The notes under the pieces: generated by a model | Told to the model about the DNA's origin: nothing | The model's input: only the letters and a program-made list of their open reading frames with translations | The model's database searches: none | Part shown: positions 36,416 through 38,499 of the stretch, piece after piece | Layout of the letters: the number at the start of each line of letters is the position of its first letter | Position numbering within the stretch: position 1 is the first letter of the stretch | Made by a program: the position numbers and the translations under genes | DNA from: Escherichia coli | GTDB lineage: Bacteria; Pseudomonadota; Gammaproteobacteria; Enterobacterales; Enterobacteriaceae | Reading direction: 5' to 3' (one strand) | NCBI RefSeq assembly: GCF_003334765.1 | Contig: NZ_QOWT01000011.1 | DNA: 64,000 nt

Positions 36416-36429
36416 AATTCCAGAAAAGA

Positions 36430-36451
36430 GACGCTGAAAAGCGTCTTTTTT
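36430..36451 (+). terminator. Intrinsic terminator of the secG-leuU transcript
   Basis: GACGCTGAAAAGCGTC hairpin followed by TTTTTT. Confidence 0.6.
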
Positions 36452-36873
36452 CGTTTTGGTCCTGGTCTGAGGAATGGTTGTCAGGTATCTGTATCTCGTC
36501 CAGTTGCTTTACTCGTAGCTGGTACCTTGAAACGATGGTGCCGGTACGCCTTAGTTATAAATTTTTCCCTTCTACTGACATAATTGGCACTTTATTGTGT
36601 CAACTCCAGTTCCGGTACGAATACGGATATGTTTACTTCTCGATAAACCATCCTGCTCCTGTCAGTATAACGACTGATGGCTACGTTCTGCGTAATGTTT
36701 AGAGACGCATTGATAATGTTATTTAATTACTGAGAACGCAATGGCCGCATCATTTAAAAAGAAAAAACTAACAGTGTTTCGTTCTGATATGGATCAGAGT
36801 TGAAAAACATGTCTGATATAAAATTAAACATTGTTGATAATTGTTTATATTGGTTGTGAACTTGGATTTCTGG

Positions 36874-38499
36874 ATGACAGTATTCAACAAATTTGCTAGA
36901 ACTTTTAAATCTCATTGGTTGTTGTATCTTTGTGTTATTGTTTTTGGTATTACGAACTTAGTCGCTTCTTCCGGAGCGCATATGGTTCAGCGCTTGCTGT
37001 TCTTCGTTCTGACCATCCTGGTTGTAAAACGTATATCATCCCTTCCGCTTCGCCTGCTTGTTGCCGCACCATTTGTGTTACTGACTGCGGCAGACATGAG
37101 TATTAGCCTCTATTCATGGTGTACCTTTGGTACAACTTTCAATGATGGATTTGCGATTAGTGTGCTCCAGAGTGATCCGGATGAAGTTGTCAAAATGCTG
37201 GGGATGTATATCCCTTATCTATGTGCCTTTGCTTTTTTATCCCTTCTTTTTTTGGCAGTAATAATAAAATATGATGTTTCCTTGCCGACAAAAAAAGTGA
37301 CAGGAATATTATTGCTGATTGTCATTTCGGGCAGTTTATTTTCCGCTTGTCAATTTGCTTATAAAGATGCAAAAAATAAAAAAGCGTTCAGTCCATATAT
37401 ACTAGCGTCGCGATTTGCTACCTATACGCCGTTTTTCAATCTCAACTATTTTGCTTTAGCAGCGAAAGAGCATCAAAGATTACTCTCAATTGCAAACACG
37501 GTGCCGTATTTTCAATTATCAGTCAGGGATACAGGTATTGATACCTACGTGTTGATTGTGGGGGAGTCTGTACGTGTCGACAATATGTCTTTGTATGGAT
37601 ATACACGCTCTACGACACCGCAAGTTGAAGCACAAAGAAAACAGATCAAACTGTTTAATCAAGCAATAAGCGGCGCACCTTACACTGCGCTGTCGGTTCC
37701 CCTTTCTTTAACTGCTGATTCTGTTTTGAGTCATGACATTCATAATTACCCCGACAACATTATTAATATGGCTAATCAAGCAGGATTTCAGACTTTCTGG
37801 CTAAGCTCGCAATCCGCTTTTCGGCAGAATGGTACAGCAGTTACCAGTATCGCCATGCGCGCCATGGAAACAGTTTATGTCAGAGGATTTGATGAATTGT
37901 TGTTGCCGCATTTATCGCAAGCATTACAGCAAAATACGCAGCAAAAGAAACTGATTGTTCTTCATTTAAATGGAAGCCATGAACCGTCTTGTAGCGCCTA
38001 TCCGCAATCCAGCGCCGTGTTTCAACCGCAGGACGATCAGGATGCCTGCTATGACAACTCCATTCATTACACAGATAGTTTGCTAGGTCAGGTTTTTGAA
38101 TTATTAAAAGATCGCCGCGCCTCGGTCATGTATTTTGCCGACCACGGCCTGGAACGTGACCCTACGAAGAAGAACGTCTATTTTCATGGAGGCAGGGAGG
38201 CTAGCCAGCAGGCATATCATGTCCCGATGTTTATCTGGTATAGCCCCGTTCTTGGGGATGGCGTGGATCGCACAACGGAAAACAACATCTTTTCGACAGC
38301 TTACAATAATTACCTTATTAATGCGTGGATGGGGGTAACAAAGCCGGAACAGCCGCAAACGCTTGAGGAAGTGATTGCACACTATAAAGGAGACTCACGG
38401 GTTGTGGATGCAAACCATGATGTTTTCGATTATGTGATGCTCAGAAAGGAGTTTACAGAGGATAAGCAAGGTAACCCCACCCCTGAAGGGCAGGGTTGA
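36874..38499 (+). CDS. yhbX: EptA/OpgE-family (sulfatase-fold) inner-membrane phosphoethanolamine-transferase-like protein YhbX (541 aa)
   Basis: ORF 36841-38499; product from MTVFNKFARTFKSHWLLYL...; N-terminal TM helices plus C-terminal sulfatase-like domain; visibly AT-rich relative to flanking genes. Confidence 0.8.
   Translation: MTVFNKFARTFKSHWLLYLCVIVFGITNLVASSGAHMVQRLLFFVLTILVVKRISSLPLRLLVAAPFVLLTAADMSISLYSWCTFGTTFNDGFAISVLQSDPDEVVKMLGMYIPYLCAFAFLSLLFLAVIIKYDVSLPTKKVTGILLLIVISGSLFSACQFAYKDAKNKKAFSPYILASRFATYTPFFNLNYFALAAKEHQRLLSIANTVPYFQLSVRDTGIDTYVLIVGESVRVDNMSLYGYTRSTTPQVEAQRKQIKLFNQAISGAPYTALSVPLSLTADSVLSHDIHNYPDNIINMANQAGFQTFWLSSQSAFRQNGTAVTSIAMRAMETVYVRGFDELLLPHLSQALQQNTQQKKLIVLHLNGSHEPSCSAYPQSSAVFQPQDDQDACYDNSIHYTDSLLGQVFELLKDRRASVMYFADHGLERDPTKKNVYFHGGREASQQAYHVPMFIWYSPVLGDGVDRTTENNIFSTAYNNYLINAWMGVTKPEQPQTLEEVIAHYKGDSRVVDANHDVFDYVMLRKEFTEDKQGNPTPEGQG

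Follow-up and report, generated by a model that had tools for sequence, protein, structure and literature searches.

Layout and composition of the yhbX locus

We analyzed a 64,000-nucleotide stretch of Escherichia coli DNA (assembly GCF_003334765.1, contig NZ_QOWT01000011.1), hereafter the window, focusing on yhbX, a gene for a putative phosphoethanolamine transferase, and on the slot that it occupies between the tRNA gene leuU and argG. The gene order is ftsH-folP-glmM-secG-leuU-yhbX, then the convergent argG, followed by metY-rimP-nusA. Between positions 35982 and 40300 the sequence differs from MG1655 at 2 nt, and the locus is 100% identical to that of strain H3. The features of the slot and its anchors are given below, with class A denoting the K-12-type yhbX allele of the window.

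36329..36415, + strand: leuU, tRNA-Leu(GAG), found by ARAGORN and by Rfam RF00005 (52.8 bits); left anchor of the slot, the same in all E. coli slot variants
36416-36873: spacer between leuU and yhbX, 458 bp, GC content 0.382
36423..36452, + strand: intrinsic terminator ending the secG-leuU transcript, with a 13-bp stem and a downstream T-run
36458..36873, + strand: class-A-specific AT-rich region 5' of yhbX, the presumed promoter region
36874..38499, + strand: yhbX, from the ATG at 36874 to the TGA at 38499, 541 residues, putative phosphoethanolamine transferase
38469..38499, + strand: 3' extension of the class A yhbX open reading frame (ORF), ten codons (GNPTPEGQG plus stop)
38500..38515, - strand: right slot boundary, with a 7-bp gap between the convergent stop codons of yhbX and argG
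38507..39850, - strand: argG, right anchor of the slot

The terminator at 36423-36452 closes the secG-leuU transcript, and yhbX therefore forms its own transcription unit. Its upstream region holds a single sigma-70-like match, a weak one at 36813-36841. This region (36458..36873) is not homologous to the spacers in the remaining slot variants or to the sequence upstream of the class C genes described below, and an Rfam scan found no family besides the tRNAs and the rimP leader. Experimenters have used it as a neutral site for inserting markers.

The coordinates and the 458-bp spacer beside leuU given in the original prediction proved exact. Its description of yhbX and the spacer as visibly more AT-rich than secG, glmM and argG, with long A/T runs and AT-rich codons, agrees with our measurements. 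The GC content of yhbX is 0.430, against 0.495 for secG, 0.544 for glmM and 0.526 for argG, and its GC content at third codon positions (GC3) is 0.421, against 0.505-0.580 for the flanking genes. Among the 59 ORFs of the window, yhbX ranks lowest in GC (z -3.2) and in GC3 (z -2.85) and third lowest in synonymous-codon log-likelihood (z -1.7). The longest runs of A/T only measure 14, 13, 13 and 12 nt in the yhbX locus, compared with at most 9 nt in either flank. Only two parts of the window contain 500-bp stretches with GC below 0.42, namely a continuous block at about 36401-37800 and positions 3901-4500; the latter, at GC 0.38, is by gene order an intergenic region upstream of gltB, beside yhcC.

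Across about 1 kb of the yhbX locus the GC content is 0.36-0.39. AT-richness peaks in the spacer and the first ~900 nt of the gene, encoding the membrane domain (GC 0.36-0.42), and the GC content climbs to 0.46-0.49 at the 3' end. The same 5'-to-3' gradient recurs in the other Escherichia yhbX classes and in a Buttiauxella homologue; it is therefore a family trait rather than a mosaic junction.

Predicted architecture and chemistry of YhbX

Pfam finds a sulfatase domain (PF00884) at residues 224-467 of YhbX (4e-56) as the sole domain, with no match to the EptA_B_N model. A hydropathy scan revealed five hydrophobic transmembrane (TM) segments at about residues 16-34, 41-59, 61-79, 113-131 and 144-162, and the AlphaFold model, with a predicted local distance difference test score of 85.7, has helices at 15-31, 37-52, 57-85, 109-131 and 140-169. 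In phmmer, residues 41-459 align with full-length NmEptA (5FGN), membrane domain included; the NCBIfam alignments likewise begin at residues 18-43. The catalytic residues of NmEptA (Glu, Thr, His, Asp-His and His) are in register with YhbX, and all 13 homologues compared, the most distant at 31% identity, retain E231, T271, H369, D423, H424 and H438. In the numbering of 5FGN, we take their equivalents to be T280 for T271, E240 for E231, D452/H453 for D423/H424, H383 for H369 and H465 for H438.

The best PDB matches of the YhbX model are 5FGN (full-length EptA), 6A82 (the periplasmic domain of E. coli EptC) and 9NWW (full-length MCR-1); Foldseek gives a probability of 1.00 to the catalytic domains of EptA, EptC and MCR-1, with target TM-scores of 0.69-0.77. 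YhbX thus displays the sulfatase-fold domain, the five-TM N-terminal domain and the catalytic Thr with metal ligands that define the EptA/EptB/EptC (YhbX/YhjW/YijP/YjdB) family, in agreement with the EptA-family architecture originally proposed. Nevertheless, its NCBIfam scores stay far below every curated cut-off: 155 against 500 for the generic lipid A transferase domain, 142 against 404 and 124 against 900 for CptA (the second-best subfamily match, at 142-151 bits), 122 against 561 and 94 against 660 for EptA, and 105 against 493 for EptB. YhbX therefore represents a separate subfamily, and on fold and motifs it is assigned to the EptA/EptC/MCR-type phosphoethanolamine transferase superfamily, outside the characterized subfamilies.

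On this assignment, YhbX would be an intact, periplasm-facing inner-membrane transferase of the alkaline-phosphatase superfamily. Thr271 would take phosphoethanolamine from phosphatidylethanolamine at a Zn site formed by E231, D423 and H424, together with H369 and H438, and would transfer it on the periplasmic side to an acceptor in the envelope. We infer this chemistry from the conserved residues and the fold. The absence of an assigned substrate, as originally noted, holds throughout the searchable literature on yhbX, and the function of YhbX is stated not to be established in a study that groups the YhbX-like protein PMI3040 with YbiP and CptA (PMC4013655). No conserved partner genes, and hence no clue to the substrate, were found in the neighbourhoods of the Buttiauxella, Mixta and Proteus homologues, and the phage genomes searched hold no close YhbX homologue.

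Contents and boundaries of the slot in E. coli

The slot was surveyed in 5426 complete E. coli genomes, each of which carries one of four contents (5179 + 237 + 9 + 1 = 5426).

K-12-type yhbX (class A): 5179 of 5426
Unrelated 1.2-kb AT-rich cassette with a helix-turn-helix (HTH) gene: 237 of 5426 (about 4.4%)
E. fergusonii-type yhbX (class B), 69% amino-acid identity: 9 of 5426
Empty: 1 of 5426 (E7-1N7)

At least 80% of the yhbX locus is present in one piece in 5167 of the 5179 class A carriers. The HTH cassette, seen for instance in E. coli 90-3040 (L028, 9259-10427; the slot corresponds to 36458-38506 of the window), has a GC content of 0.37 and encodes a 317-residue protein on the strand opposite to yhbX; copies at least 99% identical occur in 229 genomes. 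PADLOC, PHROGs and Pfam yield only an N-terminal XRE-type HTH for this protein.

The boundaries of the slot are sharp. At the left edge, the K-12-type, E. fergusonii-type, HTH and empty variants diverge within 1-2 nt of about 36457, and the shared sequence ends after ...TTTTTT(C/T)GTTTT, at the final T-run of the leuU terminator and 42 nt beyond the tRNA. At the right edge, the empty and HTH alleles possess a strong intrinsic terminator of argG, which is absent in class A; a terminator search at the class A locus found no terminator-like site for argG. The C-terminus of ArgG differs in parallel, reading ...KVK in the empty and HTH alleles and ...KGQ in class A, while Salmonella and Citrobacter ArgG end in ...NAK and ...KAK. 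The argG terminator kept in the empty E. coli allele resembles that of Salmonella. Together, the two boundaries lead us to conclude that the slot was originally empty and that the yhbX cassette came later. Judged from these alignments, the cassette appears to have taken the place of all sequence from the leuU terminator up to and including the last argG codons; the insertion would have removed the terminator of argG and rewritten the last two ArgG residues. The argG-yhbX pair is among the convergent overlapping transcription units of MG1655 present in at least 50% of 58 RNA-seq sets (PMC12288877), which is consistent with the loss of the argG terminator.

The single complete genome labelled E. 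coli with an empty slot, E7-1N7, has 273 bp between leuU and argG with the argG terminator intact (L030, 3417-3689), and its flanks are ~98% identical to the window. In Z1323CEC0017 (L029, 9295-17732), an IS26-bounded aminoglycoside-resistance region with aac(3)-IVa, aph(4)-Ia, aph(3')-I, aph(6)-Id and aph(3'')-Ib starts ~80 bp after leuU, with rearranged sequence beyond it. A few other genomes carry IS1 and IS3 insertions in the spacer or in yhbX, and ISEcp1-blaCTX-M-15 has been reported near yhbX in Shigella sonnei (PMC9973847).

The slot outside E. coli

A 64-nt leuU pattern was scanned against species-representative genomes, giving 22 loci, several with short downstream sequence and none from E. 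coli, Klebsiella or Enterobacter. In Salmonella enterica subsp. diarizonae, Citrobacter sp. MGH106 and C. amalonaticus S646, argG follows leuU after ~180-200 bp, with no yhbX in between; ArgG itself is 94-96% identical in Salmonella and Citrobacter. The enzyme sets given for S. enterica LT2 and C. rodentium also contain no YhbX (PMC4013655). In Edwardsiella, Hafnia, Phaseolibacter, Tenebrionibacter and one Rosenbergiella species, the genes that come after leuU are rimP-nusA; argG and yhbX are both missing there.

Other occupants were also found after leuU. Rosenbergiella gaditana carries a P4-type integrase island with AT-rich cargo (L003, 1264-2529), whose integrase lies ~180 bp off and is 63% identical to that of the E. 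coli pheV island; leuU therefore serves as an integrase target in a related genus. Intestinirhabdus alba has a fimbrial operon at this site, another C. amalonaticus-labelled species has a transporter and an enolase-family gene, and Rosenbergiella nectarea and R. australiborealis have an arnBCADTEF-like operon (L012, 6465-13233; L021, 3445-5806). Given these differing occupants, the site is variable across Enterobacterales. The arn-like operon, devoted to lipid A modification, is a second envelope-modifying occupant after leuU, which is probably a coincidence.

These comparisons bear on an alternative in which yhbX belongs to the old core genome, was inherited vertically and then lost by Salmonella and Citrobacter, and owes its AT-richness to the amino acids of a membrane protein. 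Such a history would suit the concentration of AT-richness in the membrane-domain half of the gene, its presence in 95% of E. coli and a synonymous divergence (dS) like that of its neighbours. However, GC3, which is not set by amino-acid composition, is 0.42 against a window mean of 0.565, and the catalytic half still stands at 0.45. The Salmonella, Citrobacter and single E. coli empty alleles share a homologous argG terminator and ArgG C-terminus that the yhbX allele lacks, which speaks for insertion and not deletion. Moreover, the closest homologues outside Escherichia, from Buttiauxella, Mixta, Pectobacterium and Microvirgula, are 41-48% identical and non-syntenic, whereas the flanking proteins are 94-96% identical to those of Salmonella and Citrobacter. 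We consider such a loss scenario highly improbable.

Three classes of Escherichia YhbX

The distribution of the family was derived from a protein search at the 50% cluster level together with cluster look-ups, as other large searches were dominated by near-identical E. coli entries. Class B is the yhbX allele of E. fergusonii, located at the same leuU-argG locus. Between E. coli and E. fergusonii, yhbX shows 69.5% amino-acid identity and 47% third-position identity, with a nonsynonymous divergence (dN) of 0.22 and a dS that is saturated and incalculable, whereas eight flanking genes show dS of 0.04-0.33 and 99-100% amino-acid identity. An elevated local mutation rate was considered as the cause of this divergence and rejected, as dS within class A (0.05-0.10) does not exceed that of the flanks.

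Aligning the right boundaries and folding the RNA of either strand showed that the 3' extension of class A is a read-through of a degenerate copy of the hairpin found after the E. fergusonii-type stop codon. Classes A and B thus have a homologous 3' hairpin and therefore either go back to a single insertion or were exchanged along with the 3' end. In either case, the split between the A and B genes, as judged from their divergence, is far older than the split of the species.

A third class, class C, encodes proteins of 557 residues that are 63-66% identical to A and B, with a GC content of 0.44. In CAMGUR010000028.1 (L039, 9001-12306) it lies beside the tRNA-Phe gene pheV, convergent with a P4-type integrase gene 97 bp apart, in an island that also holds an H-NS paralogue, a PagN-like beta-barrel protein and a WYL protein. 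Class C occurs in 455-664 of the 5426 E. coli genomes, in up to 3 copies, and also on the 62-kb plasmid CP057032.1 (L038). YjgX or YhbX has been found in every pheU/pheV/selC island analysed (PMC6174562), and yhbX has been listed with intAS, pagN and hns_2 in ST131-type genomic islands (PMC12054123). In MG1655, leuX-intB-IS2-yjgX (L042, 906-5292) has the same layout of tRNA, integrase and transferase, with both intB and yjgX being pseudogenes. YjgX is only about 30% identical to YhbX; thus, with class C at pheV and yjgX at leuX, two transferase subfamilies hold the integrase-proximal position in E. coli tRNA islands.

Phylogenetic analysis placed A, B and C in a single clade in 100 of 100 bootstraps, and A and B together in 90 of 100. 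Beyond the nearest homologues named above, those of Proteus and Providencia are 34-36% identical, and each of the non-Escherichia homologues sits in an unrelated neighbourhood. Given the scattered homologues and the presence of class C on islands and a plasmid, the YhbX family is thus sparse, patchy and mobile in Escherichia. On the sequences compared, YhbX appears as an Escherichia-specific clade of three deeply diverged classes. These data point to yhbX being a xenologue from a mobile Escherichia gene pool and not a duplication of eptA, so that the word paralog in the original prediction was loose.

The locus and tRNA islands

The position of yhbX beside a tRNA gene, together with its atypical composition, was originally taken as the classic signature of horizontal acquisition. 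Of that signature, the atypical composition and the variable presence stand, and the remainder holds by analogy only, since neither an integrase, an att (attachment) repeat, a tRNA fragment nor a junction within the tRNA was found. The slot has no integrase ORF, and tblastn detected no remnant of a P4-type integrase in any slot variant (E at least 0.16). Tests for a tRNA-derived or att-like repeat at the locus gave none above chance: the best tRNA-like repeat has a Smith-Waterman score of 13, compared with 12.1 +/- 1.2 for shuffled sequences, and 68 of 200 shuffles score as high. A 20-nt likeness between the anticodon arm of leuU and the spacer at 36523-36542 was tried as a tRNA remnant and rejected as no better than shuffles. 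The slot junction lies past the leuU terminator and not inside the 3' end of the tRNA. Furthermore, yhbX is co-directional with leuU, while class C and yjgX are antiparallel to their tRNA genes. From the sequence features present, the locus does not qualify as a classical tRNA island.

These features also bear on the idea that yhbX is the stump of an integrase-mediated island in leuU, its integrase and att sites having since been deleted. The idea draws on the P4-type integrase adjoining class C at pheV, on the equivalent layout of leuX and yjgX in K-12, and on the R. gaditana island, which sits at leuU itself with an integrase related to the pheV one. It is at odds with the lack of any integrase remnant in the slot variants, with the repeat scores at the level of shuffles and a junction after the terminator, and with an orientation relative to the tRNA opposite to that of class C and yjgX. 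We regard it as unlikely.

Selection and expression of yhbX

The K-12-type yhbX is intact in strains of phylogroups A, B2 and E. Among the K-12-like, CFT073, O157:H7 and N1 alleles, all of them intact, dN/dS is 0.09-0.15, and the class A dS of 0.05-0.10 is similar to that of the flanks, which reaches 0.17. With a dN/dS of ~0.1 across phylogroups, purifying selection has therefore acted for as long as the species has diversified. These ratios indicate that yhbX is not a decaying pseudogene and is kept by purifying selection.

Expression of yhbX in K-12 would probably be low, because of the AT-rich region with a weak promoter match, antisense read-through from argG and possibly H-NS. Binding of H-NS at the locus is possible; a search for the high-affinity H-NS motif TCGATAAATT with at most one mismatch gave no match within the yhbX locus.

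A contrasting view holds that yhbX is a silent, effectively neutral remnant heading for loss, in which the conserved residues reflect a recent arrival. The use of the locus as a neutral engineering site with no phenotype established, the replacement or interruption of yhbX in about 5% of genomes, and convergent argG transcription overlapping the gene would all sit well with this view. Against it, dN/dS remains about 0.1 across phylogroups whose flanks reach a dS of 0.17, the classes differ by a dN of 0.22 at saturated dS, and the catalytic residues stay invariant down to 31% identity. In addition, a yhbX knockout was recovered in a reporter screen, with a phenotype set aside there as an envelope or permeability effect (PMC4551910), the sole phenotypic hint in the literature searched. 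We judge this view quite improbable.

Origin of yhbX

Taken together, we propose that yhbX is an intact transferase gene that was most probably acquired horizontally into the leuU-argG slot and kept by selection, with the slot still exchangeable. The insertion would postdate the split of Escherichia from Salmonella and Citrobacter and predate the diversification of E. coli. Afterwards, slot cassettes would swap by homologous recombination in the highly conserved flanks. One YhbX class, class C, still moves on a plasmid and, adjoining the integrase, on P4-type pheV islands. Horizontal acquisition, as originally predicted, is upheld by the empty slot in Salmonella diarizonae and the two Citrobacter and by the polymorphism within E. 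coli, and the uniform presence with conserved synteny that would have contradicted it is not the case. An ancient date fits as well, given the K-12-type allele in phylogroups A, B2 and E and its dS similar to the flanks.

Several observations weigh against this proposal. The absence of yhbX outside Escherichia rests on three informative loci and one paper's gene list, and with E. albertii, E. marmotae and E. ruysiae outside the sample the timing of the gain is approximate. The nine class B genomes labelled E. coli may be mislabelled or carry large imports. A reading of them as proof of a cassette swap was rejected, since AST85 resembles E. fergusonii in its flanks over 5 kb or more to either side. 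The locus tolerates insertion sequences and resistance transposons, 4.4% of strains manage without yhbX, and the locus is in routine use as a neutral marker insertion site without a reported phenotype; such tolerance and dispensability would also fit a dispensable or mostly silent gene. Finally, the literature mentioning yhbX holds no experiment giving a substrate or an activity for its product.

Neighbouring features

Two further observations concern the region beyond argG. Rfam places a rimP leader (RF01770, 102 bits) at 40363-40463 of the window, between metY and rimP, as expected. At position 40244, inside metY (40198-40274), the window carries G in place of the A in MG1655 and thus does not come from MG1655 itself. 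This site resembles what we take to be the K-12-specific position-46 difference between two initiator tRNA species, in which case the strain of the window presumably carries the common form.

Significance

The gene yhbX and its family are already known and annotated, and AT-rich acquired genes beside tRNA genes are commonplace. The new elements are the precise slot census, the polarity of the insertion as read from the missing argG terminator, the saturation reached between the K-12-type and E. fergusonii alleles, and the connection with class C. The family includes the MCR colistin-resistance enzymes. To our knowledge, of the five K-12 homologues EptA, EptB, EptC, OpgE and YhbX, only YhbX has no assigned substrate. 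An intact, selected gene with a complete catalytic site, its membership of a clade still mobile on pheV islands and a plasmid, and natural strains that lack yhbX or carry a class 65-69% identical together render the substrate question more tractable. The locus also illustrates how an insertion that deletes the terminator of a neighbour leads to convergent overlapping transcription, though the current understanding is not overturned.

A bolder and rather doubtful reading would see YhbX-type transferases as dedicated surface-remodelling cargo of the Escherichia mobilome, with the leuU copy domesticated and the slot alleles under diversifying or balancing selection. If so, the deep divergence of A, B and C and the presence of yhbX, HTH and empty alleles side by side at one sharply bounded slot would both stem from selection of this kind over the long term. 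Phages, host cationic peptides or antibodies could then be the selecting agents, acting on the envelope acceptor, and argG read-through together with xenogeneic silencing would gate the expression of yhbX.

Comparison with known systems

Among characterized enzymes, EptC/CptA (YijP), which transfers phosphoethanolamine to heptose phosphate of the LPS core, and OpgE (YbiP) have the same two-domain architecture as YhbX. EptC/CptA also has the same 'PYT' nucleophile motif, and the periplasmic domain of EcEptC is among the best structural matches (target TM-score 0.74-0.77). However, YhbX is ~22% identical to EcEptC and falls far short of both CptA cut-offs listed above; in its distribution, it is no conserved core gene of enterobacteria, being limited to Escherichia and a scatter of other taxa. 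The lipid A phosphoethanolamine transferases EptA and MCR align with YhbX over their full length with the catalytic set conserved, and NmEptA (5FGN) and MCR-1 (9NWW) are its best full-length structural matches. Yet YhbX is ~20% identical to these enzymes, scores 94-155 bits against cut-offs of 500-660 and has no Pfam EptA_B_N domain; no evidence was found that links it to lipid A modification or polymyxin resistance.

The class C genes at pheV and yjgX at leuX (KpLE2) resemble yhbX in encoding the same enzyme family beside a tRNA gene, and differ in that the yhbX of the window has neither integrase nor att repeat and the opposite orientation to its tRNA. Integration or replacement hotspots between conserved core genes are known in E. 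coli. Like these, the leuU-argG slot accepts alternative unrelated cassettes at one precisely bounded site, and its occupants differ across Enterobacterales. Unlike them, it is very small, holding a single gene, and one occupant, which is under purifying selection, is found in 95% of genomes.

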